From NCBI GenBank assembly GCA_047288015.1, contig CM103819.1, forward strand, positions 32,561,354-32,625,353: a stretch of DNA of 64,000 bases, given 5' to 3'. Shown here piece after piece: positions 15,924 to 62,108 of the stretch; within the stretch, counting starts at the first letter, position 1, and each line of letters begins with the position of its first letter. The DNA is from Mactra antiquata (lineage: Eukaryota). A program made the translations under genes and the position numbers. A model generated the notes under the pieces. The model was not told where the DNA came from. It saw nothing but the letters and a program-made list of their open reading frames with translations, and did no database searches.

Positions 15924-16388
15924 TTAACACATTTTTACTTTGGTACCATTGCTCAGTACCATATATATTTCACCAGCTTGTTCAACACTATGTTTACTAT
16001 GTGATTCAACACCAAACCCTGTTATAAAAACATTAGATATAATTATCAATAAAACAAGAAAGTTCCCAACTCTATCAAGACGATCAGCGAGTATACGCCG
16101 TGATTCGTCCGGTGGTGGTAAGGAGGTCTGGGGCGATTGCTCCTCGTATTCTTCAAATTTTCGCTCTATTGACCATATGATAAGCATGCAAAGAGTGAAT
16201 ACCACTTGTAGAACTATGGAACCAACTATGAAGACAAGGAGAGGGAAGAAATATTTATCATGTGTGTCCATTGACAACAAAGACTTTAACTGAGATACAT
16301 TTGCCATCATTAAAGCCACGTCCATGAGTTGATGAATAAAGTTTCTTTTTCCAACATACATGTTTGCCACACCGTGTTCCTTCATGTC
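15924..16388 (-). CDS. Ninjurin-like protein, copy 3, terminal exon. In this copy the exon 2 and exon 3 sequence is contiguous (D-MKEHGVANMYVGKRNFIHQLMDVALMMANVSQLKSLLSMDTHDKYFFPLLVFIVGSIVLQVVFTLCMLIIWSIERKFEEYEEQSPQTSLPPPDESRRILADRLDRVGNFLVLLIIISNVFITGFGVE...).
   Basis: Acceptor ttactag|GACATG at 16388. The ORF is continuous across the position where copies 1 and 2 have an intron (..SLQ|V..). It carries the ninjurin motifs 'DVALMMANVSQLK' and 'NVFITGFGVE'. Confidence 0.65.
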   Translation of the reverse strand, partial: DMKEHGVANMYVGKRNFIHQLMDVALMMANVSQLKSLLSMDTHDKYFFPLLVFIVGSIVLQVVFTLCMLIIWSIERKFEEYEEQSPQTSLPPPDESRRILADRLDRVGNFLVLLIIISNVFITGFGVESHSKHSVEQAGEIYMVLSNGTKVKMC

Positions 16389-23917: not shown

Positions 23918-24493
23918 TCATTCAACACGATTAATGAACCTTTTTAAGGCATTAGGAATTGGAAGCTTTACAATGTCTGTTGATTTCCAGGCACATTGTT
24001 CCAATATTTGTAATCTACAGAGAGCCTTTAGAGTCTTTACCACAGAAGAGCTCATATTAAGTTCATCTTTACAATACTTGAAAGCTTTTCTTTGTAGAGT
24101 TAGTGTTGGCTTGCCATCATATTGGTACTTTAATGCCTCGTTCAATGACTGAACAGTCATGTTTTCAAGCAGTGTTTCAGTAATTTCATGAATGTAGTCA
24201 ATCAATATAGCTTCATCATACTTTTGTTGCTTCTCAAATGTTTCAGGATGATAAAGAATAGAGTTACAGAAAACATTAATAGGAAAAATTCCATTCTCAT
24301 TACAGTTTGGATCAGCACCATTTTGAATTAAAAGTCTAAAAGTTGTAATGCTACGTTCATCCAAACCAAGTGGAATAGAGATAGCAAGAAATGCATGCAG
24401 AGAATTACCAGAAATATTTTCATCTTCAATTGGTCCAAATATAGAGGGGTTTGCACCATGGCGTAATAATGTTTCCGTACATTTGGTCACAAA
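23918..24493 (-). CDS. Continuation of the same ASB-like reading frame after the TGA: more ankyrin repeats plus a C-terminal SOCS box (..LKALCRLQILEQCAWKSTDIVKLPIPNALKRFINRVE*)
   Basis: It is in the same frame as 24494-25570, separated only by the TGA and one codon (..DTNIR-TGA-FVTKCTETLLRHGANPS..). The SOCS-box consensus (L..LCR..I......LPLP..L..) matches. The 'M' in the ORF track here is a GTG codon. Confidence 0.6.
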   Translation of the reverse strand, partial: FVTKCTETLLRHGANPSIFGPIEDENISGNSLHAFLAISIPLGLDERSITTFRLLIQNGADPNCNENGIFPINVFCNSILYHPETFEKQQKYDEAILIDYIHEITETLLENMTVQSLNEALKYQYDGKPTLTLQRKAFKYCKDELNMSSSVVKTLKALCRLQILEQCAWKSTDIVKLPIPNALKRFINRVE

Positions 24494-25570
24494 TCATCTA
24501 ATGTTTGTATCCTCATCATCAAAACGGCGCATTAAAGTTTTAACATTTCCGTACAAACAATGCAAAGCTGAAGGGAAAGCACCTCGACCAAATGCTGTCT
24601 GTACATTCTTTCCTTCATGCTCTGATTCAAAGTGCACTTCATTAAAATTAGGATCAACACCTGCATTTAAAAGGACTACCATACAGGCAGCAATGTAAGG
24701 AAAAGTTCTTCCGAAGTCAGATGCTGGAGTATGACTTATAAGACTATAAAGAGGGTAAGTTCGAAAAGGAATAGCACAGACAGGATTTTGTTTATGTTTT
24801 AATAAAACTGATGTGACTGCCAAAAATGATTCGTACCATGTTTTCTTAAAAGAAAAACAATATGAATATAACACATGATACAAATTCATTCCACCGAACA
24901 ATGATGTAAGGGAAGTATTACACTTCAGAAGAACATCTAAACACTCAGCATTAGCTTGCTTTAAGGCTGTACCAATGGCTGATTTAATATCTTCACTAGA
25001 GGGTCTTTGTTTTAATAATAATCTCAAGGCACTAGAAGAACTACTGGCACAAGCTGCTGATAAATGATTATCACTTCCTTTAATTCCTAGTTTAGTTCTA
25101 ATTGAAGAAACATCTAGAATTGATCGAATACAATCTACATGACCACATTCACCCGCAACATCTAATGGAGTAACCATGCTTGTTTCACTTGTCAAATTCT
25201 GTGAACTTTCTGTTGGCTTCTTTACCCATTTGAATTTAGTTCTTGTAGTAGAATAATCCTGAGGGCGCTCTTGTAATATCATTACAGAAATTGATCTGTT
25301 GCCAAAGTTAGCAGCTAGATGAATGTATGGGTGGTATTTTGGCTCATGTGGTGGTTTGAACAAACCCATAGCAAAAATCATCCCCACTGCTTCAATATTG
25401 TTGGCCATGATGGCATGATGTAACACATCATAGCCGCCCTCATCAGTCCAGGCAAGCAAATACTTCCTTTCACATTTCTCAAGACATTGTCTTACACTAC
25501 TAACGTCCTCAGTTGTGAGAATTTTCTTATATAAAGTTTTCTTCAAGTCTTCTATTTTTGCTGCCATCAC
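24494..25570 (-). CDS. Ankyrin-repeat protein, the N-terminal 358 aa of an ASB-like (ankyrin repeat and SOCS box) gene. It ends at an in-frame TGA at 24494-24496.
   Basis: Ankyrin-repeat consensus segments are present ('GGYDVLHHAIMANNIEAVGMIFAMG', 'TPLDVAGECGHVDCIRSIL', 'LLNAGVDPNFN'). The continuous ORF is 1074 nt. Confidence 0.7.
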   Translation of the reverse strand: MMAAKIEDLKKTLYKKILTTEDVSSVRQCLEKCERKYLLAWTDEGGYDVLHHAIMANNIEAVGMIFAMGLFKPPHEPKYHPYIHLAANFGNRSISVMILQERPQDYSTTRTKFKWVKKPTESSQNLTSETSMVTPLDVAGECGHVDCIRSILDVSSIRTKLGIKGSDNHLSAACASSSSSALRLLLKQRPSSEDIKSAIGTALKQANAECLDVLLKCNTSLTSLFGGMNLYHVLYSYCFSFKKTWYESFLAVTSVLLKHKQNPVCAIPFRTYPLYSLISHTPASDFGRTFPYIAACMVVLLNAGVDPNFNEVHFESEHEGKNVQTAFGRGAFPSALHCLYGNVKTLMRRFDDEDTNIR

Positions 25571-40575: not shown

Positions 40576-41019
40576 GTAAGTTATCAGTCCTTCGACATAT
40601 AATTATATAAATATCATGCGTCTAATGACTGGTTTTATTTAACTAAATTATGGATTTTATGAAAATGAGTCATAATAAACTAAGTAAGCAAACTTTACTA
40701 TATGTACCGTAAAATACCGAATAATTCTAAGCGATAATAGTTTTTTATTTCAAGAAAATCGTCCTTCATTTAATGAAATCGTCGAATGTTTCCCAAAAAT
40801 AGCCTAAAATACGATGTATGTCAAACAACGCGTCCTCTAAATGATAAGGAACAATGGTCTTTAGGGTCCGTTTCAGGCACCTGTGTTTTCAAACGCTGTG
40901 TTCGGACTACAAAGCTGCTTTTGAAATACTGTCACATTAAGATTTCTAAATGACATACATTGATTTCACTATTTGCGGAGCGTATTTATATACTTTTTAT
41001 GTCTATTCTTTTACACTAG

Positions 41020-42328
41020 GCGTTGCAAAATTAGAAAAGACGAGCAACAGTTACCATCACAACAACCCAGACGGCCACCTCCTCGTCCAAACTTTTTACA
41101 GCGCACATTAACTCAAGCACGCGATCGAATAATCCGGTCAAGACCTTTACCAAAGATTCCTGCAGATGCCGAGGGACAAACACTTCGTACAAAGGTCATT
41201 GACCAAGATCCTCAGTCCGGGTATTACGATAGTATTCGATTGGATCTTATTGACGTCAAAGATAACAATAACTACCCTAGCATCCAAGAATGCTATAAAA
41301 ACAACAAAATTCACAATGACATAATAAATCAAGTAGCTCCACAATCTTCAGTCGATTCGAGTTCGTCCTATATTCACCCTAGTGGTGTTCAAGTCCAACA
41401 TGACGACAGCGATGCCAATACGTTAGCCGTTAGCACAATTAGCGATAAGGTTGAACAAGATAACCACTATATATACATGCGTCCGGCAAAGGGAAGCAAC
41501 GTTGCTGATAATCAAGAAACCGATGACGTATACCTTAAATCAAGCAATACTAAACTGATTCAACAAGGCGGTGAAACGCTTGCAAAGAATGATACGCCAG
41601 TCTCTATTGACACAGACTCATTTTACGTGTACTCAAATAATTTCAGATTTCCCACCGGTGAACAACGTATTGATGGTAGTTATATTAATACTAAACCTAG
41701 TGTCGAAAAGATATCTCAGGGTTCAACACTTGTCCCTGAGCCAAAACATGAAAATGCAGAAAAATGTGAAAATGATACAAGCGCGCTGTATCTCAATGAC
41801 ATGCGTTTCAGTGACTATGAAAATGTTCAATGTACGAAACATTCAAGCAACAAACATGAAGACACAGACACTGAATCGCCTTATTCAAATTGTGTTAATG
41901 AAGTAAATCGAATTATCCAACACTCTGTGATTAATTCTGGGGGTAACGATACGCAGAATAGTGACACTTATATCCCTATGAATACGGGACAGACTGTTGT
42001 AGAGAGAGCCGAAGAGGCCAGAAGTACTGATTCTCATCTAAATAAGGACGCGCAAATCTGTGATGAAAATAGTATAAAGGAAAGTGCTTGTGAAACAGAC
42101 AGTTCAGACTACATGCCAATGGTCGGTTGCCGAAGAAATGTCGAAAAACAAATGTTGCAGAAACAAGACAGTACTTTTCCAAACTTAATGAGTTTCAAAG
42201 TGCATGGTGCATCAGACCAACACAATGGTGGCAATACTATAATGCATCCAGATGCACACTTAGAGAATGTATTGAAACCAAATAAAATCAAGCTAAAGCG
42301 GTATGTTAAGGAGAAGCGTCAGTCGTAG
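41020..42328 (+). CDS. Exon 5 of the membrane-protein gene: a cytoplasmic tail of about 435 aa, with a basic juxtamembrane 'RCKIRKDEQQ', a proline-rich stretch and several tyrosine motifs including YIYM and YMPM. Stop at 42326-42328.
   Basis: Acceptor cactag|G at 41017-19 completes the Gly codon left open by exon 4. This is the long ORF 40973-42328 in the track. It is acidic and rich in S, T, N and D. Confidence 0.55.
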
Positions 42329-47200: not shown

Positions 47201-48006
47201 ACCAGTGATACACGTAAGGTGTACAATTGCTATATAAATAAAAATATTTTGTGGCGGCTGAAAAGGTCAGGGAATAATGATGTTCAGCGTTGTTTCTACC
47301 GTGATTGTATTTCTAAACTTTTCATTGTATAAGATTTTTAAATTATGTTCACGCGTACTTTTTATAAATACATTTAGAATTGCTTTATTTTCAAGGGAGG
47401 TAATAACTAACACCCGTTGACATTTATTATCAAATAAGTCAGCATTCCCAAATTATGTAAGGAATCAAATTCATGCAAAATATCAAACATACTGTAAAGA
47501 AAAGAAAATATCATATTTTGTGTCTAATTTAATCATACTTTTTAAACATAAGTTCACATGTAGCGGTGATATTTACATAAGAAATTGTATACTTATCATG
47601 TAATTTTAATAATAATATACACTTAAACTAAACTACACTAAAATGAACCGCCTCTGTAGTCGAATGACTTCAAATCCCTGTAAACTCTCACTGAACAAGG
47701 GGATCGCTCTTCGTGTGATAACAAGATATACATTTGCTAAAGGGGGATGGGGGTTAGTGAAGGCAAATCCCAGGAACGACGGTTAGGCGAACGTTTTCCT
47801 TCACATGACTTTGACGGTTGAACAGGAACGTAAAAAAAGACACGAACCAAACAAACGTAGTTTTTTCTGTAAGTTATAAAAGAGTTTCAAACAATTTCAA
47901 TGTGAACATTTTAGAAAAAAAAACGGAAATTAAATATTTTTGTCGTACAGTCAATCCTCGTCTCCAATAAGCAAAGATAATCTAATGAAATAGTTCAAAT
48001 CTTTGT

Positions 48007-48834
48007 TTACGACAGTAAACTTAATATGTCCTGTAGAAGTTCTAATATTGACTTCTGGTCACGTGATTTCCCCAGAACAACAACAACCAAGTCAGATATA
48101 ATACCAGCAGTGATTATATTGACATGTGTTTCACAAGTCTTACAGTTATAGTTGGTTGCTATGGTTTCATTTTTATAAAAATCAATGTCACGTAAATCAA
48201 TGTTATTGACATAATTCATTCTATTTTCTTTAACTGAATGTTCACCGATAAACGCTCCTGATCTGTTAGAACTATCCCTCTTAGTTTTGTTTATTTCATC
48301 ACCAACAATATCCCCACAACCATCACCATTGTCATCATCATTATATCCATCATTATCTTCACCAGCACTATCATCATCATTAAGTTTTTCATATCTTCCA
48401 TTATTATTATTCTTCTCTTGACATTGCTTTACTTCACGTCCTTCGTCGTCTCTCCCATATTCATCATTGCTCTGATTCAGACCAGCCTCTCCACTTACAT
48501 CCAGAACATCTCTGTGACACCTTTCATCTCTATGGCATCTTTCATCTCCCTTGCACTTTTCACCATTCGTGTTAAATCCATCGCGTCCTATAAAACACCC
48601 ACTCTTATCAACCATACATATAAAGTTAGTATTTAGCATTCCTACTGAAAACAGTGTCCGTTTTGGACTTTTCAAAAGGGAGACTATTGTCGGCGCTTCT
48701 GTCTCTGGTACTTCGAGATCTCCACATCGCAATATAGTATTCCCATTTGAATCAAATACATTCAAAGAAATTTCAGGTTTGAGCGAAGTTTCCTTACTCC
48801 AGAATTTTCTCACAGATTCTAGTTTAGATTCCAT
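48007..48834 (-). CDS. Candidate single-exon gene: a 275-aa acidic protein with an internal 'DERCHRDERCHRD' repeat, an N- and D-rich low-complexity region and a C-terminal hydrophobic segment
   Basis: It is the longest non-repeat ORF in this region. The ATG context is aaacaATGg. No family was recognised. Confidence 0.35.
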   Translation of the reverse strand: MESKLESVRKFWSKETSLKPEISLNVFDSNGNTILRCGDLEVPETEAPTIVSLLKSPKRTLFSVGMLNTNFICMVDKSGCFIGRDGFNTNGEKCKGDERCHRDERCHRDVLDVSGEAGLNQSNDEYGRDDEGREVKQCQEKNNNNGRYEKLNDDDSAGEDNDGYNDDDNGDGCGDIVGDEINKTKRDSSNRSGAFIGEHSVKENRMNYVNNIDLRDIDFYKNETIATNYNCKTCETHVNIITAGIISDLVVVVLGKSRDQKSILELLQDILSLLS

Positions 48835-50796
48835 TGTTTCTAAACTACCAACTATAAGCCTTGGTTATCAATGTTGATTCGCCGCCACGCTTCAAATTAT
48901 TGACAAAACACTCTACAAATGCACAATTCACGTTAAAATAAAGTACAGTGCGTTTTAAGTTTGCCTCATTGCTCAACATACTATTCACTGTTACATAAAG
49001 ACCTTTTATTTCGCTCAGTATTGATTCTGCTCAATGTTGTTGGGTTTTTTACAATAACTATTGCACAATGAAGCTCAACCGTATCCGCCAAATGCTTTCG
49101 TTAATAATTATTCCTTATCTCTTCCACAGTTACTTGTCATTTAATGTTACATTATGCTAGTTAACTAGAACGTAAATCTGTTGAATAACTTAAGGAAGGC
49201 AAATATCGACTGAAGCAAAGCTAATGTAAGTTTAATGGAACATATTCTACCTTTACCTCAATATGGATTTATCAGCCAATATCCTTTTATACGACTTTCA
49301 CCCAGACAGCGACAGATGCTGATTTTAATTAATGTAGAAATATTATTATGACTCATTGACTCTGGTTTATGATCGATATTGTAGGACTGCATTGAAGAGA
49401 GTAAACATAATAAAAGCCCAAGGGATCATTGTTATTAATTTTATTACCATAAATATGTAGTAAAGTATGATCATTTATAAACCGTGCAGGTTTGATTGAT
49501 GTGATAGTGGAATCAATGAACCTTATCACAAAACATTCTACGGTAAAAATCATATACACAGAAAACATTAATAACAACAATACTTTGCCTATCGATTCCA
49601 AACAAAAAACAACAACAAAGAAACGTTTAATTACTCACACTTTTGAACCCTGTTTCATTAAAAATGAGTATATCACTATTAATTGTAACGGAATGATTTT
49701 TAAAATGATGCATATATAAAAAAGCCACCCTTAACACAAAAACAAAAATAAAATATAGGTCGCCCTGCTGGTCTCTTAGAATGTCCACTTGTTTGACCCC
49801 CCATACAGGTCATTTTGTAGAATTTTTAGTAAAACATATAACATTGAGAAGTGACTTGTTCCAGTGTTTTCTTTAATATTAAAAATCATTATATATTATA
49901 TATAATACATGCATGACTCAATTGTCAAAATGTGTTGAGAAAATAAATATTTATTACATGGGCATTGTCTCAAAATTGGTGCTCTAAGCGCCCGTAACAC
50001 TAGCTTTATTATTCATTTCAGAACCAAAAGGCTTGTGTCCCGTAACCGTTTCTGCATTCTATATCATGTGCAAGAAATGCCGTTGTTGCGAAATATGGCT
50101 ACTGCTAGAAATGATAAAAATACAAAACTGTCAAACGCCGCTGTCTTAAAACTATTCTTCTTACGAAGGTGCTGTGCTAATTAACATAACATGAAAAACA
50201 AGCATACTGCAGTCTATGATCTTAATGACGATAAATACATTGTGTTTTATTGGCCAATATACAAAAATATCATTTGATTGTGCTGAAAGATAAAATATAC
50301 AATAATTTAATGTTCGTGGATTGTGCCCGGAGGGTTTCAAATATATTTGTTTAATTTTGATGTATGTGATATTTTTGTATTTCAAATACAAATGTCAACT
50401 GGCGTGTTTTGGGCGATAAGTATTTATTGAAATTGTTATCACATAAAATTTAAGTAGAACTGCGAGATGAGGGTATTTGCCAATTTATATTGAACTGTCA
50501 CATATGGTGTGTATACACTCCAAATTTAATAGACTATTTCCGGAATTCATTTTTTCGGTTTATTTTCCACGAGGTACAAACATACTTTTACTGTTACTAT
50601 GAAAATATGTGTATACGGATTTAATCCGTGTTTCTTGATTTTCAGCAATAATGTGTAGAAAACTTTGTTTGTACCGCCTGCGCACGGATGGCAAAACCCA
50701 TAAATGTGAGTTCCGAATTAAGTCTATTAAAGCCACTATACTCAATTACAGCAGATAAGAAAACAATCTTACAACCTTAAAGTCAATTACATATAA

Positions 50797-50963
50797 CCGA
50801 CTATGGTTTATTCCATAGTCGCGGTTATCCGGGATACGTTGGGTTTTATCCTTAACTTCCGTTAACGTATTCACCCATGACAATGCACGTGCTTTTCCGA
50901 ATGATATTCACTTTTCAACCGACCACCGGACAATAGGTATGCACTTATTATAGCTTGTATTTT
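50797..50963 (+). repeat. Split direct repeat A1, the 5' terminus of the tyrosine-recombinase retroelement
   Basis: 'ccgactatggtttattccatagtcgcggttatccgggatacgttgggttttatccttaacttccgttaacg...cttattatagcttgtatttt' is identical to 56921-57087 and 58264-58430. Confidence 0.85.
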
Positions 50964-51690
50964 TGTGTGTTGTTAATTTTGTTGATTATTTTAATATTGA
51001 GAATTGCTGATGTTTTTATTTAATGCTTGATTTAAAAAGCATAAATTTGTTAGGAGGTAATAGGACTGGTTTGTGATTACACATACACATATTATTTGTG
51101 TGTTTAAACCGAGCGTAGACCATAGAGCATTCTTAAGTGTTTCAATTTTGTTTTATTTGATTGAAGTGAATAGTTATAAATTATTGGAAAGGCATATTTG
51201 TAGGTAAGGGTTTATTGTATCAATAGTGATAGTAGGCTTATGTTAAACTTTTGATACTGGTTACCACGTGGCAGGTATGATGGCGTTTACCACGTGGCAT
51301 TGAAAATTTTTGCATGAGGTGTACGGGTAAGCATTATGAAATATTTGTTAGGTATTACAATGTTAGCTATTGTTACATGCATTTTTAAATTTGAACTTGT
51401 AGTTAATATTTGACCATGGTTACTATCATATGCAAGTTTATTTATCCAAATATTATTTCGAGGTATAGGTCATTTGAGCAAGGCGTGTAACACGTGGCGG
51501 TAATATAAATTCTCCCATTAGTTAAATTGTGTGTAGCGATTGGAGAAATGTTTTTAATGAAATAATCCAGCAACTGAGTTTTAAAACATAAGTCCAGTTG
51601 GTCCAACGAAATTGCTTGCTGTTGTTTAATTTCAAATTCAGGTATTATTGACGACCATTTATGTAAAACAATTCTTCAAGAGATTGACTT

Positions 51691-52572
51691 GTGTCTTTCA
51701 TCAAGATGGAAAACTCTAGTGACCCTGTACAAAGAGTGGAGGAACACGTGGAGGAAGACCAACCAGGTCCTGCCAAGAAACAAAGAGTGGAGAAAAATAC
51801 TGACAGTAGCAATGGTAATATAATTACATTAGATCTTGATATAGAAAGATTATTGCAAAATAGTAATGCTGCGGTTCATAGTATACATTCAAGTATTGGA
51901 AGTCATGTACCCTCTAGCATTAGGAGCAAAATTTCCTCAGGCCAATATGTTGATCTTGAAAATGTACTTTCTCAAGATAGTAATTTGAGCGAAGGAAAGG
52001 TTTGTGTTAATTTGTCTGGAGAACTAGCTATTAAACCAGACTCCAAAAAGGTTAAAATTAATAACCTTGATTCATGGACTGATGCCTTCATCATATTTAC
52101 TAGTATTTATTTATTGTCGCATCCTGATCAAAGTCAAGCACTTCTTAAATACATGCAAAACGTTCGAACAGGTGCGAAGCGTCATGGAGGTTTGGGTTGG
52201 AAGCTCTATGACGAACAGTTCAGAATGAAATTGGCCGCTGACCCTTCTATGTGTTTTGACAAGATTGACTATGAACTTTGGTTGCTATATATGACACCGG
52301 GTGGTGCATTACAAAAAACCCAAACTAATCCAAACTTTAGTCAATTTAATTATAAGAAATGCTATGATTTTAACTATAGATATTGTAGTAGAGTAGATTG
52401 TCAGTATAAACATCTGTGTATAATTTGTGGTTTAAAACATCCTTGTAGGTCGTGTTATAGAGCCAGAGGTACATCAGCGCCAAGTCTGCGGGCCTCTGTC
52501 CCCCAGGGCCAATATTCCGATATCAGACCAGGTAGTAAACCTAGACATACCGGTCCGAGAGCGGGTAAATAG
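51691..52572 (+). CDS. Retroelement ORF1: a Gag-like protein with a C-terminal zinc-knuckle-like motif, C-x2-C-x3-H-x4-C ('CIICGLKHPCRSC')
   Basis: 293-aa ORF, the first ORF after a leader of about 730 bp. Its position and Cys/His motif are typical of DIRS/Ngaro gag. Confidence 0.6.
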   Translation: MSFIKMENSSDPVQRVEEHVEEDQPGPAKKQRVEKNTDSSNGNIITLDLDIERLLQNSNAAVHSIHSSIGSHVPSSIRSKISSGQYVDLENVLSQDSNLSEGKVCVNLSGELAIKPDSKKVKINNLDSWTDAFIIFTSIYLLSHPDQSQALLKYMQNVRTGAKRHGGLGWKLYDEQFRMKLAADPSMCFDKIDYELWLLYMTPGGALQKTQTNPNFSQFNYKKCYDFNYRYCSRVDCQYKHLCIICGLKHPCRSCYRARGTSAPSLRASVPQGQYSDIRPGSKPRHTGPRAGK

Positions 52573-52615
52573 TTTAGGTTTCACTCCAATAAAAGCAAAT
52601 GTTCTTGAAAGTTTT

Positions 52616-54187
52616 TTGTGTTTATATCCAAGACAGGATGATGCAAACATTTTGAAAAATGGCTTTAAAAGTGGGTTCAAGATAAATTTTACAGGGCTTG
52701 TCTCAATTCAGGAGGTTAAAAATTTAAAAAGTGCTAACTCTCACATGAATGAGTTAAAGCAAAAGATTTTAAAAGAAGTTAAATTAGGTAGAATTATGGG
52801 TCCTTTTGACACTCCACCATGGAATAACTTAAAAATATCACCTGTTGGTCTGGTACCCAAATCTGATGGTTCATGGAGGTTAATCACCCACCTTTCTTAT
52901 CCTGCTGGTTCCAGCGTTAATGATGGTATAGATGATGATTTATGTTCGGTTTTTTATACTTCGTTTGACCAAGTTGCTGATATGGGTTTTTGCTTAGGTA
53001 GGGGTGTATTGATGGCAAAAAGAGATATCAAATCCGCTTTCCGTCTGTTACCAATCAATCCCTCTGATTTTCATTTGTTGGGTATCAAAGTTGATGGCAA
53101 ATATTATGTAGATAAAATGTTACCCATGGGGCTAAAGATAAGTTGTGCATTGTTTGAAAACTTTTCGACTTTCATACATTGGCTAGTTAGTTACTTGGCA
53201 AAATTAAATTCTTTAGATCATTACCTAGATGACTTCATATTTGCAGGCAAGGCTCAGTCTAGCGATTGCACAAAATTAGTAGATACATTTACAATGGTGT
53301 GCTCTAATATAGGAATTCCTATAGCGGAAGATAAATCAATAGACCCAACCACTGTTTTGGTTTTCCTAGGTCTTGTAATAGATTCGGTTCAAATGTGTAT
53401 AAAAATACCCCTGGATAAATGTCATGAGTTAATCAAAATTTTGAACGAATTGTTATCGAAAAATAAAATTACGTTACTTGAATTACAAAAATTGACTGGG
53501 AAATTAAATTTCTTTGGAAAAGCAATTCGTTGTAGCCGGGCATTTTTGCGTCGTTTCTATGATTTAATGACCCCTCTTAAGAAACCCCATCATAGATTAC
53601 GTTTGACAGAGGAAGTTAGGAATGATATGAAAATGTGGCTGACATTTCTTAAAACTTTTAACGGAGTGACGTACATTCCAAAGAGTGTATGGATAAGTAA
53701 CTGTGTATTAGAATTATTCACCGATAGTGCAGGGTCTGGTCATTTAGGTTGTGGTTGTTATTTTAAAGGTAAATGGGCATTTTGGGCTTGGCCGGATCAT
53801 TGGTTGAAAGAAGAGATTTTATCAGACATGACATTTCTAGAAATGGTGCCGGTTTTACTGTCTATGTATTTATGGGCTTGGGAATTAAAACAAAACAAAA
53901 TCATTTTCAATATTGATAATGAATCTTTGGTATCCATTTTGAATAAGCAGTCGTCTCGCTCGAAGCGAGTTATGCACCTGGTGAGAGAATTTATCTTAAT
54001 AGCTATGAAATACGACATTTGTTTTAAGGCTGTTCATATTAGATCAATTCATAATAATATTGCTGATGCTATTTCTCGAAAACAGTGGCTTCGTTTCAAG
54101 GAGATCGCACCTGCGGCATTAGAACTACCAGAGCCAATTCCGCACAAATTCCTATCAACAGTCTTAAAGATGAAGTTGACAGACTAG
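52616..54187 (+). CDS. Retroelement ORF2: reverse transcriptase plus RNase H
   Basis: RT motifs 'SPVGLVPKSDGSWRLITHLS', 'DIKSAFRLLP', 'HYLDDFIFAG' (the YxDD box) and 'FLGLVID'. RNase H motifs 'FTDSAGSG', 'EMVPV', 'FNIDNESLV' and 'HIRSIHNNIADAISR'. Confidence 0.85.
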   Translation: MCLYPRQDDANILKNGFKSGFKINFTGLVSIQEVKNLKSANSHMNELKQKILKEVKLGRIMGPFDTPPWNNLKISPVGLVPKSDGSWRLITHLSYPAGSSVNDGIDDDLCSVFYTSFDQVADMGFCLGRGVLMAKRDIKSAFRLLPINPSDFHLLGIKVDGKYYVDKMLPMGLKISCALFENFSTFIHWLVSYLAKLNSLDHYLDDFIFAGKAQSSDCTKLVDTFTMVCSNIGIPIAEDKSIDPTTVLVFLGLVIDSVQMCIKIPLDKCHELIKILNELLSKNKITLLELQKLTGKLNFFGKAIRCSRAFLRRFYDLMTPLKKPHHRLRLTEEVRNDMKMWLTFLKTFNGVTYIPKSVWISNCVLELFTDSAGSGHLGCGCYFKGKWAFWAWPDHWLKEEILSDMTFLEMVPVLLSMYLWAWELKQNKIIFNIDNESLVSILNKQSSRSKRVMHLVREFILIAMKYDICFKAVHIRSIHNNIADAISRKQWLRFKEIAPAALELPEPIPHKFLSTVLKMKLTD

Positions 54188-55086
54188 TTTCGGTTTCTTT
54201 GTCTAAGAACACAGTGGATTCTTATCAAGTTGGAATACGAAGATTTGAGTCATTCAGGAGCCTTTATGGAATGTCGTTATGCTGGCCACCAATAATCGAA
54301 CAACTCAGCTTATACTTAGCGAACCTATCTATACAAGGGTTGTCTTACAACACAGTTAAATTGTATATTTGTGCCATTGCTTTTCAATGTAAATTAAAAG
54401 GCGTTGAGGATGTCACAAAGAGTTTTGTTATACAGAAACTCTTGACTGGTATTCAAAAGTCATACAAGAAAAAAGTTAGGCTTCCTATAACAGTAGAAAT
54501 GTTGCAATCAATGCTGCCGAATTTATCATCTGTTTGCACGGATCTATATGAAAGCAAGCTATTTGGTGCTGCGTTTACCCTAGCATTCTTTGGTTTCTTT
54601 CGAGTGGGTGAATTTACAGTTACTAGGAAAGAGTATATGTTGAGAATAATCTCATTTAGAGACATTACTTTAGACTTAAAGGCTGGGACTTTGTGTATAA
54701 ATTTGAGATATTCAAAAACAGATCAAAATGGAAGAGGTGTTTTTATAAAGTTATTTAAGAATAATACTTTGATTTGTCCGGTGGAGAACATGTCTTCTTT
54801 TCTTCAAGTGAGACCGGATAATAAGGGGCCCCTGTTTTGTCACTTTGATGGCAGACCTTTGACTCGATATCAATTCACCGCTGTTCTAAAGAAGGCATTA
54901 GCGAGTGTTAACGTAGAATATTCGTATTATAAAGCTCATTCTTTTAGAATAGGTGCAGCATCAACCGCTGCAAAATTAGGTCATTCTGTAGAGGTAATAA
55001 AATCAGCAGGACGTTGGTCTTCCGATGCATTTAGAGGTTATGTTCAGCCAATAAATGACTTGCATAAAATGCCTCTGTTACTGTAA
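54085..55086 (+). CDS. Retroelement ORF3: a tyrosine recombinase of the phage-integrase type, overlapping the end of ORF2 in another frame
   Basis: Catalytic signature residues: 'FFRVGEF' (R), 'RYSKTDQNGRG' (K), 'HSFRIGAAST' (H-x-x-R) and 'GRWSSDAFRGYV' (Y). There is an N-terminal core-binding-like region. Confidence 0.8.
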   Translation: MASFQGDRTCGIRTTRANSAQIPINSLKDEVDRLVSVSLSKNTVDSYQVGIRRFESFRSLYGMSLCWPPIIEQLSLYLANLSIQGLSYNTVKLYICAIAFQCKLKGVEDVTKSFVIQKLLTGIQKSYKKKVRLPITVEMLQSMLPNLSSVCTDLYESKLFGAAFTLAFFGFFRVGEFTVTRKEYMLRIISFRDITLDLKAGTLCINLRYSKTDQNGRGVFIKLFKNNTLICPVENMSSFLQVRPDNKGPLFCHFDGRPLTRYQFTAVLKKALASVNVEYSYYKAHSFRIGAASTAAKLGHSVEVIKSAGRWSSDAFRGYVQPINDLHKMPLLL

Positions 55087-55213
55087 TTATCGACTCTAGT
55101 TTGCTCAATGTAATACATTAAATAAACGCATTTTAAAATGTATATGAAGGTTATACATGTTGAACGGGGGTTCTTGTTGTATAGTAGTTAATGGATAATT
55201 TTATGTCTATATT

Positions 55214-55813
55214 ATGTATGTACATAATTACTTATTTCTAGAATCTGTGGTGTGGATTATTGGATCTTCTATTGTAAAGAATGCATTTATTGCTGCAAGA
55301 CAAAATAGTCATTTGAATATCAAGAATACAACCGTATGGTGGCAAGGATATAGTGGCCTCTGTCTTGAAAACTTGCGGTCTAAAGTAAGGCTGTTAGGTT
55401 CTGTCAATAATGACAGACCAGATATAATGATAATTCATTGCGGTGGCAATGACATCGGGAAAATACCCGTCAAGGCAATCAGAAATATCATAGGTTTTAT
55501 TTTTGCTTTAATCAAGAAATATTACCCAAGTATTAAGATTATTTGGTCAGAGATTTTGCCAAGATCGAATTGGAGTTATTCTTGCAATATTAAAAAGATG
55601 GAAAGATGTAGAAAACGTTTGAACAGTTTTGCTGGCAAATTAGCCATAAGCTATGGTGGCTTATATATTAGACATCAGTCTATTTGCGAGAAAAGTCACA
55701 TGTATTTGAAAGACGATGGTGTTCATCTGAATACTGAAGGAAACATATTATTCCTTGCTAAATTAAAGCAATCAATTTTAGACTGTTTTAATGGCTTAAG
55801 TTACACAGAGTAA
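55214..55813 (+). CDS. Retroelement ORF4: an SGNH/GDSL-family hydrolase (esterase or lipase-like) with all four conserved blocks
   Basis: Block I 'IIGSSIVKN' (nucleophilic Ser). Block II 'QGYSG'. Block III 'IHCGGNDIG' (GxND). Block V 'DDGVHLN' (DxxH). Confidence 0.7.
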   Translation: MYVHNYLFLESVVWIIGSSIVKNAFIAARQNSHLNIKNTTVWWQGYSGLCLENLRSKVRLLGSVNNDRPDIMIIHCGGNDIGKIPVKAIRNIIGFIFALIKKYYPSIKIIWSEILPRSNWSYSCNIKKMERCRKRLNSFAGKLAISYGGLYIRHQSICEKSHMYLKDDGVHLNTEGNILFLAKLKQSILDCFNGLSYTE

Positions 55814-55942
55814 TTAAAAATGGGACGCGCTGATGCAAAGTGTATTCTTTTTTGTTTTAATTTGTCATTCGTCATTCGCTGCCGCAAACTTTGGGTTTAG
55901 TTTGGCGGTTGTCTGTTTTTATTGCATAAAAACCGACAATGT

Positions 55943-58900
55943 GGCATCCAGCGAAGCAGAATGACTTGTATGGATGTACATTTATTGTGATATAAACTCT
56001 TAATCTAGATGTACCACTGAATATTGCATCCCAGGGTACAATGCATATAATTGTCATTTGGTGCTATTTATGTGAAATTGAATTTGTATTGCATACCCAT
56101 TTGAGTCAATTGAATTTGTTGTTATGATACCTTGAATTTGCCATTATGTAAAATAATTTTTGCCTACAGTGCTGTAGGTTGGCTGTCGCTTCTTTGTCTG
56201 TTGCTCTTCAAAATTAGTAAGGTTGAGCTAGTCCCTATACCTTCAGAAAGGTCGGCGGCTCAAGCGATGGCCAGTTTTGCTCAGTTGGCTATTTATAATT
56301 TGCCGAGTTGGCTATTTACTTTTGATACTTTTAATTCGCAACTTGTAAAGTAAGTTTTGCCTACAGTGCTGTAGGTTGGCTGTCGCTTCTTAGTCGTAGG
56401 CGGCTGAAGCGATGGCCCGTTTTGCCCAGTTGGCTATTTATATAGTTTTGCCTAGTTGGCTATTTATATTTTGCCGAGTTGGCTATTTACACAGTTTGCC
56501 GAGTTGGCTATTTAGATTTGGCCGAGTTGGCTATTTACACAGTTTGCCTAGTTGGCTATTTAGATTTTGCCCAGTTGGCTATTTACATACTTTTGCCCAT
56601 TTGGCTACTAACATACATTTGCCTAGTTGGCTATTTGCTACTTAATTTCATATGCTTTTGACTTAAATACAGTTACATGAAATTGGTATGTATACAAATT
56701 CAAGTTTTTGCTATTTAAAAGAATTGCATCAGTCGCGCCCATTTTTCGCCATACTTACAATATTAAATCATTAAATGTAGAGTTATTTACTTCATGGTTT
56801 GTTTTTACTTCTTTACAAATATCAATGATTGTGTGACAGCGATTTTTCCAATAGAGAACATCTATACACCAGTACTAAGCTGGAACACAATCATTGCTAC
56901 CAGAGTATTCCAGGATAAAACCGACTATGGTTTATTCCATAGTCGCGGTTATCCGGGATACGTTGGGTTTTATCCTTAACTTCCGTTAACGTATTCACCC
57001 ATGACAATGCACGTGCTTTTCCGAATGATATTCACTTTTCAACCGACCACCGGACAATAGGTATGCACTTATTATAGCTTGTATTTTAAACCCACCCACC
57101 CAACCCACATTAAATTTTATAAGCTTGCTGCGCTGTTATATTTATATTTTCAGTAGTACAAATATGGAATACTCCAAGAACTTGTGATTGATTTGTTGAA
57201 CATTATACATTAGTTCAAATCGTTAACAGCAATCATCAACTGGAGTAAATACCACATAGGATGGTGCGACTGACGTTAAACAACTGGCATCCAGCGAAGC
57301 AGAATGACTTGTATGGATGTACATTTATTGTGATATAAACTCTTAATCTAGATGTACCACTGAATATTGCATCCCAGGGTACAATGCATATAATTGTCAT
57401 TTGGTGCTATTTATGTGAAATTGAATTTGTATTGCATACCCATTTGAGTCAATTGAATTTGTTGTTATGATACCTTGAATTTGCCATTATGTAAAATAAT
57501 TTTTGCCTACAGTGCTGTAGGTTGGCTGTCGCTTCTTTGTCTGTTGCTCTTCAAAATTAGTAAGGTTGAGCTAGTCCCTATACCTTTAGAAAGGTCGGCG
57601 GCTCAAGCGATGGCCAGTTTTGCTCAGTTGGCTATTTATAATTTGCCGAGTTGGCTATTTACTTTTGATACTTTTAATTCGCAACTTGTAAAGTAAGTTT
57701 TGCCTACAGTGCTGTAGGTTGGCTGTCGCTTCTTAGTCGTAGGCGGCTGAAGCGATGGCCCGTTTTGCCCAGTTGGCTATTTATATAGTTTTGCCTAGTT
57801 GGCTATTTATATTTTGCCGAGTTGGCTATTTACACAGTTTGCCGAGTTGGCTATTTAGATTTGGCCGAGTTGGCTATTTACACAGTTTGCCTAGTTGGCT
57901 ATTTAGATTTTGCCCAGTTGGCTATTTACATACTTTTGCCCATTTGGCTACTAACATACATTTGCCTAGTTGGCTATTTGCTACTTAATTTCATATGCTT
58001 TTGACTTAAATACAGTTACATGAAATTGGTATGTATACAAATTCAAGTTTTTGCTATTTAAAAGAATTGCATCAGTCGCGCCCATTTTTCGCCATACTTA
58101 CAATATTAAATCATTAAATGTAGAGTTATTTACTTCATGGTTTGTTTTTACTTCTTTACAAATATCAATGATTGTGTGACAGCGATTTTTCCAATAGAGA
58201 ACATCTATACACCAGTACTAAGCTGGAACACAATCATTGCTACCAGAGTATTCCAGGATAAAACCGACTATGGTTTATTCCATAGTCGCGGTTATCCGGG
58301 ATACGTTGGGTTTTATCCTTAACTTCCGTTAACGTATTCACCCATGACAATGCACGTGCTTTTCCGAATGATATTCACTTTTCAACCGACCACCGGACAA
58401 TAGGTATGCACTTATTATAGCTTGTATTTTAAACCCACCCACCCAACCCACATTAAATTTTATAAGCTTGCTGCGCTGTTATATTTATATTTTCAGTAGT
58501 ACAAATATGGAATACTCCAAGAACTTGTGATTGATTTGTTGAACATTATACATTAGTTCAAATCGTTAACAGCAATCATCAACTGGAGTAAATACCACAT
58601 AGGATGGTGCGACTGACGTTAAACAACTGGCATCCAGCGAAGCAGAATGAATTGTATGGATGTACATTTATTGTGATATAAACTCTTAATCTAGATGTAC
58701 CACTGAATATTGCATCCCAGGGTACAATGCATATAATTGTCATTTGGTGCTATTTATGTGAAATTGAATTTGTATTGCATACCCATTTGAGTCAATTGAA
58801 TTTGTTGTTATGATACCTTGAATTTGCCATTATGTAAAATAATTTTTGCCTACAGTGCTGTAGGTTGGCTGTCGCTTCTTTGTCTGTTGCTCTTCAAAAT

Positions 58901-59606
58901 TAGTAAGGTTGAGCTAGTCCCTATACCTTTAGAAAGGTCGGCGGCTCAAGCGATGGCCAGTTTTGCTCAGTTGGCTATTTATAATTTGCCGAGTTGGCTA
59001 TTTACTTTTGATACTTTTAATTCGCAACTTGTAAAGTAAGTTTTGCCTACAGTGCTGTAGGTTGGCTGTCGCTTCTTAGTCGTAGGCGGCTGAAGCGATG
59101 GCCCGTTTTGCCCAGTTGGCTATTTATATAGTTTTGCCTAGTTGGCTATTTATATTTTGCCGAGTTGGCTATTTACACAGTTTGCCGAGTTGGCTATTTA
59201 GATTTGGCCGAGTTGGCTATTTACACAGTTTGCCTAGTTGGCTATTTAGATTTTGCCCAGTTGGCTATTTACATACTTTTGCCCATTTGGCTACTAACAT
59301 ACATTTGCCTAGTTGGCTATTTGCTACTTAATTTCATATGCTTTTGACTTAAATACAGTTACATGAAATTGGTATGTATACAAATTCAAGTTTTTGCTAT
59401 TTAAAAGAATTGCATCAGTCGCGCCCATTTTTCGCCATACTTACAATATTAAATCATTAAATGTAGAGTTATTTACTTCATGGTTTGTTTTTACTTCTTT
59501 ACAAATATCAATGATTGTGTGACAGCGATTTTTCCAATAGAGAACATCTATACACCAGTACTAAGCTGGAACACAATCATTGCTACCAGAGTATTCCAGG
59601 ATAAAA
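55943..59606 (+). repeat. Tandem array of about 2.7 copies of a 1343-bp unit (a B plus A unit) forming the 3' terminal region of the retroelement
   Basis: The period is visible from identical ORF-track entries at 56132, 57475 and 58818. The units are nearly identical, with single substitutions such as 'gacttg' versus 'gaattg'. Confidence 0.9.
56400..56640 (+). repeat. 21-bp minisatellite 'TTTGCC[G/T]AGTTGGCTATTTA[C/G]A', about 10 copies. It is repeated in each 1343-bp unit, also at 57743-57983 and 59086-59326.
   Basis: 'ttgccgagttggctatttacacagtttgccgagttggctatttagatttggccgagttggctatttacacag...'. It generates the spurious 73-, 77- and 60-aa ORFs in the track. Confidence 0.9.
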
Positions 59607-60664
59607 CAAGCTTTAGACACAAACTAACCTTCTCAAACTGTTTTGTTTTCACAATTTAAGTGAAACAAAGTGACCATTTCTTAAAAAAGGCGGTTCCTTT
59701 TATAAGAGCTCAGTACACACATTTCTTTGTTTATGATAAATACAATTAACTCAACATAGCTGTGTTTAGCTAAACAATACAATTTGGAGGTTGTTTAATC
59801 TTTCACAAGACTCTATCCCAACCAGTTTGTGATCAAACCTCAGTTTTAGTATATAACAGACAAATTTTACTTTCGGTTTCGATCTATTTCACTTTGAAAT
59901 GCAGTGAATAACGTTGAAAGATATAAGTTTAAATGACTTTTGACAATTTTTCTTCGATAAATTGATACAACATACATCTGTATCAGTTAATTGTTTCCAT
60001 TTATTTTACAGTCCATGTACAGGTTATATTGTCTTGATATAGGGGCTTTAACTGACTATAAATAGGGTGTCCATTTTAGAATGTGTTTTGATCATGAGAT
60101 TTTATATGAATGACAGTTAAATCCAATTGGACAATACCCTCATATGCAAACACTCTTTTATCAAAGTCCGATTAGTAGACAGTGCATTTGCAGTATCCAT
60201 TTTGAATATCACAGAAGAATTAGCTCAAAATTCACAGCTCAGAGGGTGTATTTAGATTTAACACTACTGTATAACCTAAGAAATCAGATCAATGAGAAAT
60301 CCGGAATCCTCTGACTTCTGAACAATTTTCTTGGCCCTATTTTGGACCCTGAGTGCAAAAACAACCTGAGAAAATCAGACAAAATCTGTACAATACGAAT
60401 GTTTTCTTCAATCCAGAACTTGTTCAGATTTCTCAAATTACACTATATTACTTCGACTCAACATTTACACTATAGAAAACAGTCTGTTTTCCGGATACTT
60501 ATTCTCGTACCCAGAGGTTATCAAGAAAATCTTGATGGTTTGCGAGAATGCTTGCGGGTTTATTCCATTGACTATTAAAAACTGTTACACTTGAACGTTT
60601 AAGAGAAATAGACCAATAAGCCTGTACATTGTACCGACTTAGAACTTAACAAAGTACTAAAATG

Positions 60665-60952
60665 TAATGTATGTTGCTTCGCGCCTTTTTTCGACATTTT
60701 TTCAGCCATTTTGCGGAGGTCAGTTGACCTACACATCTCTAGATCCATGCTTTTAATCAGTACTAACCTTTGCCAGTGGATGACAATTGCCCTGCATGTA
60801 GTTGATACAGTGGTAGGAGAGAGAATGGCCGTAGAAAAAAAATCATGACCAAACTACACGCAGGTACGTTGGTCCGACCCGGAAATCGAACCCGCGACCC
60901 CTCGATTGGTAGACAGACGCGCTTCCGACTGAACTAGCCAGACCGACTTGAA
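60665..60952 (-). mobile_element. tRNA-derived SINE, subfamily B
   Basis: The reverse complement gives the head 'gtcggtctggctagttcagtcggaagcgcgtctgtctaccaatcgaggggtcgcgggttcgatttccgggtcgg'. The body and tail ('aaaaatgtcgaaaaaaggcgcgaagc') match the other B copies. Confidence 0.75.
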
Positions 60953-61679
60953 AAAGTACAAGTACCAAACATCCGGTACACATACGTCTAAGGTTATAAA
61001 TACTTGAGATCGAACTCAAAACTCAGTTTTGTTCTCAGGCTGTATTGTTTCACTGTAATATAAAACAATCAATCAAAAGATTATAGTATAAATGTTTATT
61101 TGAACTTCGCCATAAAATATATTAACTTTTTCTAATATGGTCCATTGTTTACTAAGAAATCCCTTGAGAACATAACTAAGTGCCGAGCATACAATTCGAT
61201 CTTAATTTTTATTACCTCGGGTTCAGGACTTGGTTTCACAAAATGTCTCAAATTGAGATTTGTCTCAATTGCAATATATCAACAAAACAAAAAAGAAAAT
61301 AATCAAAGCAAATCAAAGCTTTACATTGCTGGAAACAAAGAAGATCTTGCGTCAATGAACTTATGAATAACAAAGATGAAAGGGTACTTATTGATCTTGG
61401 TAAATTTGTTCATATTTTGATAACTCATCCAATTTTTCATTAATCATTAACACATTTTTTATAATTTATCTGAACCAGATTGTTACATAGTACATATAGT
61501 AGACATTAAAACTAGGTTTCTGTTTTATTTATTCTTAATCTAGAATTATATATCAGACATTTTATTACCCTCTACCCGTAACTCTATATCATAGAAATAT
61601 TTTGTTAAATTTAATACCTGTATACTACACATGTTGTTACTATTTTAATGTAACCTGTGATTACCTAAAAAGATCATGT

Positions 61680-61705
61680 TCTGTTCTGTTCTGTTCTGTT
61701 CTGAT
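61680..61705. repeat. (CTGTT)5 microsatellite
   Basis: 'ctgttctgttctgttctgttctgtt'. Confidence 0.9.
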
Positions 61706-62108
61706 AGGATTGGAATATGATTTACATTAAAACTATTACACGTTGAAAAGTCAAATCTGTTTTACTGTAAAAGGTTTTATGAATTTTGTCCAGTAGTATT
61801 GACAAGACGCCATATTCTAGTAACTTTTAAACAAGTTTGCATTACGAGCGTTCACTTATATTCCAGGGACAATACTTTGAACTGTGCTAATAAACAGATC
61901 GTCAATAACAAAACACATATTTAGAAAAAAACACGATTCTAACCACTCTACCATATCTAGTATTACTAAACGTAAAATAAAACTAACCATCGAACATGAT
62001 TTAATCATTTGTTCTGTCAGTAACAACACTACATAATATAGCCTTGTAACAACACATTTTGGGGTCCAACGCATATTGGGTCAAAATCGAGAAATGTACC
62101 CCATGTGC

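Follow-up and report, generated by a model that had tools for sequence, protein, structure and literature searches.

What kind of mobile element lies within a 64,000-nucleotide (nt) stretch of the genome of the farmed clam Mactra antiquata (assembly GCA_047288015.1, contig CM103819.1, positions 32,561,354 to 32,625,353, forward strand), is the copy complete, and what do its ends suggest about how it was inserted? In what follows, the window means this whole stretch, and positions are counted from its first letter unless a relative is named. A sequence-only reading of the window had proposed an apparently intact Ngaro/DIRS-type tyrosine-recombinase retrotransposon with four open reading frames (ORFs). 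Tyrosine-recombinase retrotransposons are, to our knowledge, rare, and we know of none from animals that has been the subject of experiments; what is known of how they transpose comes mainly from models based on sequence and from DIRS-1 of Dictyostelium. Using profile searches, a phylogeny of the reverse transcriptase (RT), structure models and a comparison with related elements, we find that the element spans positions 50791-59607 of the plus strand (8,817 base pairs, bp) and is very probably a young, apparently complete copy of a Ngaro-type tyrosine-recombinase retrotransposon. The evidence supports narrowing the broader label to a Ngaro-like element of Mactra antiquata, which is a reference copy of an already known type and leaves the classification unchanged.

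Gene content and phylogenetic position

A scan of positions 49000-61500 gave four consecutive open frames on the plus strand, in the order that the sequence-only reading had given them: a zinc-finger Gag-like protein, RT with RNase H, a tyrosine recombinase and an SGNH esterase. No further frame of at least 80 amino acids (aa) is present within the element. The coding part is laid out as follows:

50964-51705, plus strand: 5' untranslated leader, between the left terminal repeat A1 and ORF1, with no ORF of at least 80 aa
51706-52572, plus strand: ORF1, 288 aa from the first ATG, frame open from 51691, Gag-like by position
52436-54187, plus strand: ORF2 (listed as 52616-54187, open from 52436), in frame +1 to ORF1, overlapping it by 137 nt
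about 52853-53338, plus strand: RT domain of ORF2 (Pfam)
about 53720-54080, plus strand: RNase H domain of ORF2 (Pfam)
54067-55086, plus strand: ORF3, tyrosine recombinase (listed as 54085-55086, open from 54067), in frame -1 to ORF2, overlapping it by 121 nt
55214-55813, plus strand: ORF4, a 199-aa SGNH/GDSL-type esterase with its own ATG, 128 nt past the ORF3 stop

The Pfam families that had been predicted for the RT, the RNase H, the recombinase and the SGNH enzyme were all recovered, and the claim that all four frames are open with their catalytic residues in place holds, the residues being both found and kept in relatives. ORF2 matches RVT_1 (E = 2.2e-8, above the curated cut-off), RVT_3/RNase H-like (3.6e-4) and RVT_thumb. 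Its RT catalytic residues are D137 in motif A and Y203-L-D205-D206 in motif C, and those of its RNase H are D370, E409, D434 and D484; each is kept in at least 95% of the sequences when ORF2 is aligned with 60 homologues. ORF3 matches Phage_integrase (1.9e-5), and its best solved relatives are the Tre and Cre recombinases (E = 0.002), with R173, H285-S-F-R288, W311 and Y319 of ORF3 aligning with R173, H289-x-x-R292, W315 and Y324 of Cre. These active-site residues, together with K211, are invariant in L002 and L003, two relatives from marine metagenome contigs. ORF1 carries a CCCH zinc finger (C219-x7-C-x4-C-x3-H236) followed by a CCHC-like one (C238-x2-C-x3-H-x4-C250), both invariant in four homologues of 42-44% identity.

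The position of the element among retroelements was read from a neighbour-joining (NJ) tree of 180 columns with 200 bootstraps, built from the published alignment of PMC6681497 (supplement 16) with the window RT and four relatives added. All Ngaro references, the window RT and the four relatives form one clade with 98.5% bootstrap. The window RT is 40-54% identical to the Ngaro references (53% to DIRS7_CGi, 44% to DIRS6_CGi and 48% to XtNgaro2) and 12-29% identical to all non-Ngaro RTs, including those of Gypsy, caulimovirus, retrovirus, hepadnavirus and BEL elements; the kinetoplastid VIPER/TATE elements lie at 12-15%. Inside the Ngaro clade, the window element and its nearest relatives (Mercenaria, Saccostrea, Pecten and marine metagenome contigs) cluster weakly, at 26.5% bootstrap. 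A word-indexed search returned 602 RT homologues, the best of them 64-65% identical and drawn from marine metagenome or sequencing-run assemblies; the named matches are Mercenaria, Saccostrea and Pecten.

No methyltransferase domain was found by Pfam in any of the ORFs, and there is no space for one, with RT, thumb and RNase H filling ORF2 and ORF3 beginning within the 3' end of ORF2. A Ngaro RT, split direct repeats, the lack of a methyltransferase and an SGNH ORF together agree with the published definition of a Ngaro-like element (PMC4157794, PMC9210276, PMC7192593). With all its enzymes intact by their residues, the copy is potentially autonomous and may be regarded as a candidate for mobility.

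In Ngaro-like elements, a gene for an SGNH hydrolase behind the recombinase is an optional addition. ORF4 matches Lipase_GDSL_2 (4.2e-11, above the cut-off) and also Lipase_GDSL, and its sequence blocks (I, IIGSSIV; II, WWQGYSG; III, HCGGND; V, DGVH) are conserved in 17 family members, in most of which block I reads GSS, not GDS. An AlphaFold model made from the family alignment has a mean predicted local distance difference test score (pLDDT) of 91.4, and in Foldseek this model matches GDSL esterases, sialate O-acetylesterases, PAF acetylhydrolase and TesA with template modelling (TM) scores of 0.65-0.74 and probability 1.00. The modelled fold is thus predicted to be an SGNH fold, closest to the small acetyl and acyl esterases, and the enzyme would probably strip an acyl or acetyl group from a lipid or a sugar during the life cycle of the particle. 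A full HMMER search with the esterase profile returned 1,531 representatives at E of 1e-10 or below, including proteins of Xenopus laevis, other frogs, geckos, Mytilus and Tegillarca; the frogs, X. laevis among them, are the group from which the Ngaro SGNH ORF was described, and they also supply ORF4 relatives at about 1e-35 or better. An annotated M. antiquata protein is 54% identical to the ORF4 esterase, which suggests that other Ngaro lineages probably live in the same genome.

Two side observations concern the esterase. In L002 (4569-4652, VGSSIV) and L003 (4463-4504, VGDSIV), block I lies upstream of the called start with no ATG preceding it, so that ORF4, like ORF2 and ORF3, is probably not conventionally initiated in this family. 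The strongest matches to the esterase profile are gecko proteins (P0168, P0169, P0175 and P0227, from Sphaerodactylus, Paroedura, Gekko and Eublepharis) of 1,300-3,100 aa that hold two to six copies of the esterase domain, with E down to 2e-137; these could be host genes made up of esterase domains, or gene models in which several transposon copies were fused.

The leader holds three E-box motifs (CACGTG; ACCACGTGGC-type) at 51265, 51291 and 51491, and further ACCACGTGGC-type sites lie at 50886, inside A1, and at 51745. We dropped this cluster as a regulatory signature: the E-boxes are not present in the leaders of seven relatives and are therefore probably lineage-specific.

Split direct repeats and the 3' array

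Self-comparison resolves the ends of the element into two unrelated repeats, A at the left terminus and B at the right, that meet only in the 3' part, where a spacer C follows each internal A. The complete layout reads A1 - leader - ORFs - B(973)-A(173)-C(197)-B-A-C-B, made up of these parts:

50791-50963, plus strand: repeat A1, 173 nt, 99.4% identical to A2/A3, with one difference at position 4
50798-50821, plus strand: 9-bp perfect hairpin in A1 (fold)
55942-56914, plus strand: repeat B copy 1, 973 nt, with one difference from copy 2, at 56244 (C versus T)
56419-56636, plus strand: tandem array of about nine 24-nt units (TTTGCCNAGTTGGCTATTTA...) in B (Tandem Repeats Finder), repeated at 57762-57979 and 59105-59322
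56915-57087, plus strand: repeat A copy 2, 173 nt (self-comparison)
57088-57284, plus strand: spacer C copy 1, 197 nt, starting AAACCCACCCACCC, unlike the sequence after A1
57285-58257, plus strand: repeat B copy 2 (self-comparison)
58258-58430, plus strand: repeat A copy 3, identical to copy 2
58431-58627, plus strand: spacer C copy 2 (self-comparison)
58628-59600, plus strand: repeat B copy 3, 3'-terminal, with one private difference, at 58651
59448 and 59456, plus strand: ATTAAA motifs in B copy 3 (motif scan)

A sigma-70 promoter and terminator scan, irrelevant for a eukaryote and rejected as such, merely recovered the A1 hairpin again.

The claim of near-identical split direct repeats with A1 at the 5' end stands; the 3' layout, given as B-A-B, has to be corrected to B-A-C-B-A-C-B. 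Any two of the three B copies are told apart by 1-2 of their 973 positions: unit 1 alone has C at 56244, and unit 3 alone has A at 58651. The 1,343-bp units are 99.9% identical. Since the repeats of a newly inserted element should be almost the same (PMC6681497), the 0-2 differences found per repeat copy point to a young copy, and the earlier suggestion of a recent insertion is a reasonable one. Self-comparison also agrees that the element is without long terminal repeats (LTRs) and without inverted terminal repeats: its left terminus is A and its right terminus B, mutually unrelated, and no pair of inverted repeats of at least 25 nt was found in positions 48000-62000.

Complete repeat sets could be read in three relatives, namely the Mercenaria element L001, the Saccostrea element L007 and the contig L009, and all three have the layout A1 ... 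B1-A2-C-B2, with spacers of 322, 286 and 330 nt, respectively. Since the spacer is present in each of them, spacer C is a feature of the family, and the extra B-A-C unit belongs to the Mactra copy alone. Tandem arrays with a period of 24-26 nt occur in the B repeats of three of the four elements (24 nt x 5 at 13295-13415 in L007; 26 nt x 3.3 at 10897-10980 in L009), with unrelated sequences. L005, L006 and L008, which are old or truncated, have no usable 3' repeats; of the repeats, L006 keeps just A1 and A2, and L008 just a start resembling A1. As a side observation, L001 (7186-13590, Mercenaria mercenaria) and L009 (6862-12524) keep intact A and B repeats (98-100% identical) with gag and RT, and their B1 begins a few hundred bases past the RT ORF, the recombinase and esterase genes being missing; these two look like internally deleted, presumably non-autonomous derivatives.

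Points against a complete Ngaro copy, and other readings

The observations that weigh against a complete and working Ngaro copy are of several kinds, and the first of them is the array itself: positions 55942-59607 amount to 2.73 tandem copies of the 1,343-bp unit, which exceeds the canonical layout. The array, with its three B and two C copies, might be an assembly artefact in which the repeats were over-expanded, the true layout being B-A-C-B. Each of the three relatives has exactly 1.5 units, and units that are 99.9% identical are the kind of repeat that assemblers miscount. Set against this, the single-base private differences at 56244 in unit 1 and 58651 in unit 3 are unlike the pure duplication of one consensus, and the gain of a unit is biologically easy, by unequal exchange or by recombinase action on repeated cores. 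We regard a miscounted array as a real but minor possibility. The simplest view of the extra B-A-C is that one unit of 1,343 bp was gained secondarily, which would have happened (i) by unequal exchange between B copies, (ii) by an additional template switch in reverse transcription, or (iii) by the recombinase inserting an excised A-C-B circle at the junction core. Any of these three, or mis-assembly, could explain the extra unit, and the data leave the four unranked.

The remaining points concern the genes and their surroundings. The match of ORF3 to Phage_integrase, at 25.0 bits, lies slightly under the Pfam cut-off of 27.1. The description of ORF1 as Gag-like is positional, together with the two zinc fingers, since ORF1 has no Pfam match and no solved-structure relative in the Protein Data Bank (PDB; profile from four homologues); its single-sequence AlphaFold model is unusable, with a pLDDT of 31. 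Neither ORF2 nor ORF3 has an ATG near its start, and no usable canonical -1 slippery heptamer is present in the ORF1/ORF2 or ORF2/ORF3 overlaps. One candidate slippery site, TTTAAAA, was rejected: the stop from which the ORF2 frame opens lies within it, and the shift would go in the wrong direction. Finally, the rest of the window has no second copy of the element and no fragment of it, and exact look-ups of six element proteins found them absent from the public protein collection.

Read together, the missing start codons and heptamer, the separation of ORF4 from ORF3 and the lack of sister copies in the window and in the protein collection would suit a dead relic, whose frames are still open through youth and whose ORF2-ORF4 could not be expressed. 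The relatives speak otherwise. The four-gene order is the same in L002 and L003, at 64% RT identity (contig L008 likewise carries all four genes), and so are the +1 and -1 frame relations; the ORF1/ORF2 overlaps measure 158 and 155 nt in L002 and L003 next to 137 nt in the window, and the ORF2/ORF3 overlaps 124 nt in both next to 121 nt. In comparison with L002 and L003, the amino-acid conservation of ORF3 begins directly after its upstream stop. The conservation of overlaps and frames in relatives indicates that this arrangement is the normal design of the family, overlapping ORFs are typical of elements of the DIRS order (PMC9210276), and all catalytic residues are intact. We therefore consider a dead relic rather unlikely, and keep to the view of a young and apparently complete Ngaro-type copy.

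Assignment to the PAT-like or DIRS1-like elements instead of Ngaro is very improbable. Split direct repeats are shared with PAT-like and VIPER elements (PMC6681497, PMC4157794), so the repeats would allow it, but the window RT is only 18-23% identical to those of PAT, SkowPat, Kangaroo and DIRS1_CGi and 23-29% identical to DIRS-like references, against the 40-54% seen with the Ngaro references in their well-supported clade; the methyltransferase domain and the inverted terminal repeats are both lacking, and an SGNH ORF has been reported for Ngaro, not for PAT or DIRS1 (PMC9210276, PMC7192593). That the element is an endogenous retrovirus or LTR retrotransposon whose 3' end has been rearranged, with recombinase and esterase as passengers, a reading that a zinc-finger Gag-like ORF followed by RT-RNase H and a B-A unit formally like a split LTR might bring to mind, can be dismissed as extremely improbable, in keeping with the sequence-only reading's exclusion of LTR elements: no ORF has a Pfam match to an rve/DDE integrase or a protease, the left terminus is not repeated directly at the right, the RT groups with none of Gypsy, BEL and the retroviruses, and relatives from other species have kept the same set of genes.

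Junction core, palindrome and known systems

How the element might have entered its site is suggested by the short sequences at its ends and at the places where B joins A:

50791-50797, plus strand: left core ATATAAC, the first 7 nt of A1, candidate crossover region of the recombinase
59601-59607, plus strand: right core ATAAAAC, after which the sequence departs from repeat A
56909-56958, plus strand: imperfect palindrome of about 50 nt across the B1/A2 junction, with a second copy at 58252-58301
57088-57101 and 58431-58444, plus strand: C-rich tract (in relatives at 12764 in L001, 13884 in L007 and 11621 in L009)

The internal junction reads TCCAGG-ATAAAAC-CGA, the left end AATTAC-ATATAAC-CGA and the right end TCCAGG-ATAAAAC-AAG. 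The terminal cores thus form a direct repeat at six of seven positions that matches the element's own B/A junction sequence, and in the window copy the match of the right end to that junction extends 7 nt beyond B. The sequence-only reading had claimed that there is no target-site duplication; this has to be qualified: a 7-nt near-repeat brackets the element, and this junction core of its own is the only repeat in the flanks. In the window element, L001, L007 and L009, in this order, the right ends read ATAAAAC, ATAA, AATAA and ATAA (4-7 nt past B into the start of A), and the left ends read ATATAAC, ATAT, AATAA and ATAA. An ATAA/ATAT core at both ends fits the mark expected of a recombinase crossover and not a random target duplication, since the latter would differ between insertions and four elements share the core. 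In the Mactra and Mercenaria elements the left core has T where the junction has A, which agrees with a target core that read ATAT and an exchange directly behind position 4. For DIRS elements, a similar proposal, crossover at an element-encoded sequence, has been made to account for the trinucleotide at the junction (PMC7192593).

The junction also folds. The window palindrome has an outer stem GGATAA/TTATCC and an inner stem CGACTATGG/CCATAGTCG, with a folding free energy of -14.1 kcal/mol (z = -5.0; none of 200 shuffles folds as well). Equivalent palindromes of other sequence lie at 12549-12594 in L001, 13663-13707 in L007 and 11341-11393 in L009, so placed that the end of B and ATAA pair with TTAT and the next bases about 35-45 nt inside A and enclose a perfect inner stem of 8-10 bp; the z-scores of the four elements (window, L001, L007, L009) are -5.0, -6.5, -2.4 and -4.8. 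When the elements were folded in sliding windows of 60 nt, the junction ranked with the most stable windows in three of the four. The bases at the end of B, which read GG, CCAA, A and CGGCC in the four elements, co-vary with their partners CC, TTGG, T and GGTCG, and such compensatory changes argue for selection on the palindrome structure. We found no description of a conserved junction palindrome with its core in the literature searched.

A lox-like reading of the inner palindrome, with 9-bp arms, a 6-nt spacer and crossover within that spacer, was considered and rejected: A1 matches A2 leftward all the way to the core, and the crossover must therefore lie at the ATAA core. A tract CCCACCC starts the spacer in all four elements, the spacers being otherwise unrelated and nothing similar following A1; this tract may be a priming or termination signal.

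Integron attC sites and the attachment site of the CTX phage are folded hairpins that are used by tyrosine recombinases. By analogy, the junction palindrome might be a recombination site that acts as a folded hairpin in single-stranded complementary DNA (cDNA), a proposal that we advance tentatively and think improbable as it stands. The complete palindrome is present only where B joins A, its ATAA core has its partner, TTAT, at a distance of about 35 nt, and the terminal bases of B are matched by bases inside A, so arranged that exchange would take place at the foot of the stem and that A-C-B units might be gained or lost between junction sites.

In the split-direct-repeat model (PMC6681497, PMC7192593), the transcript would run from A1 into the last B and would then be reverse transcribed, with the internal B/A junction templating the missing ends and closing the cDNA into a circle that carries a B/A junction. 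The recombinase would then exchange strands between the ATAA core of this junction and a target ATA(A/T), and the insertion would produce no real target duplication, each end retaining one copy of the core.

The closest known systems are the four-ORF Ngaro elements with an SGNH gene and A1/B1A2B2 repeats that have been described as DIRS-53_XT and DIRS-54_XT in Xenopus tropicalis (PMC9210276); DrNgaro-type elements go back to Goodwin and Poulter 2004, as cited in PMC9210276. The Mactra element resembles these Xenopus elements in its four-ORF order, its overlapping frames, the placing of A at the 5' end and of B/A/B after the recombinase, the lack of a methyltransferase, its RT clade (48% identity to XtNgaro2) and its homologous SGNH domain. 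It differs in that its repeats are much longer (its B measures 973 nt, that of DIRS-53_XT 152 nt), a spacer C follows A2, an extra B-A-C unit is present, block I reads GSS instead of GDS, and the host is a bivalve. Ngaro elements have been reported as a class in bivalve repeat surveys (PMC10294476) and are also on record in Lottia, and the Repbase elements DIRS7_CGi and DIRS6_CGi of Crassostrea gigas, compared by their RT cores only, share both the host class and the RT clade. Dictyostelium DIRS-1 and the DIRS1-like elements have in common with the Mactra element the tyrosine recombinase, an internal copy of the joined termini that presumably templates the ends, and a short junction sequence at both ends (PMC7192593), but they have inverted terminal repeats, an internal complementary region and usually a methyltransferase, none of which is found in the Mactra element.

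Two further comparisons concern single proteins. The zebrafish element ZfL2-1, a long interspersed element (LINE) of the CR1/L2 type, also encodes an SGNH-type esterase (ORF1p, PDB 4c1b), which ORF4 matches weakly (E = 0.27). The LINE esterase is a domain of ORF1p, whereas the Mactra esterase is a separate 3' ORF in a different class of retroelement, and the non-significant similarity makes independent recruitment of the two esterases likely. With Cre and Tre of phage P1, ORF3 shares the pattern R-H-x-x-R-W-Y, with tryptophan at the position of Cre W315, although the proteins are very dissimilar overall; the sites differ too, Cre and Tre acting on a 13-8-13 lox site with crossover in the central spacer, and the Mactra recombinase presumably on a core of 4-7 nt that lies at the base of the junction palindrome.

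Elsewhere in the window, an intact Ninjurin-family ORF of 153 aa (15924-16385, minus strand; Pfam 4.9e-19) agrees along its entire length, at 100% identity, with an M. antiquata protein named 'tissue reproteinration', and so identifies the host species; the next best matches are proteins of other heterodont bivalves at 66-73%. At 23918-25570 on the minus strand, two adjacent ORFs in the same frame (358 and 190 aa) encode ankyrin repeats and then a SOCS box, as in ASB-like proteins, and are divided by a single in-frame stop (...TNIR*FVTKC...); the split could reflect a pseudogene, an intron boundary or a sequence error. Two other ORFs, of 451 aa (40973-42328, plus strand) and of 275 aa (48007-48834, minus strand, ending about 2 kb upstream of the element), have no Pfam match. 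Exact look-ups of three ORFs neighbouring the element found no match in the public protein collection.

The type of element, its gene set and its occurrence in bivalves are already on record, to which the conserved palindrome and core add modestly. The ATAA core, the junction palindrome and the CCCACCC tract are testable candidates for the recombinase site and for the signals of reverse transcription. A very young complete copy with its enzymes intact is a practical start for consensus, expression and mobility work in a farmed clam, and it also gives a starting point for asking what the SGNH esterase does.

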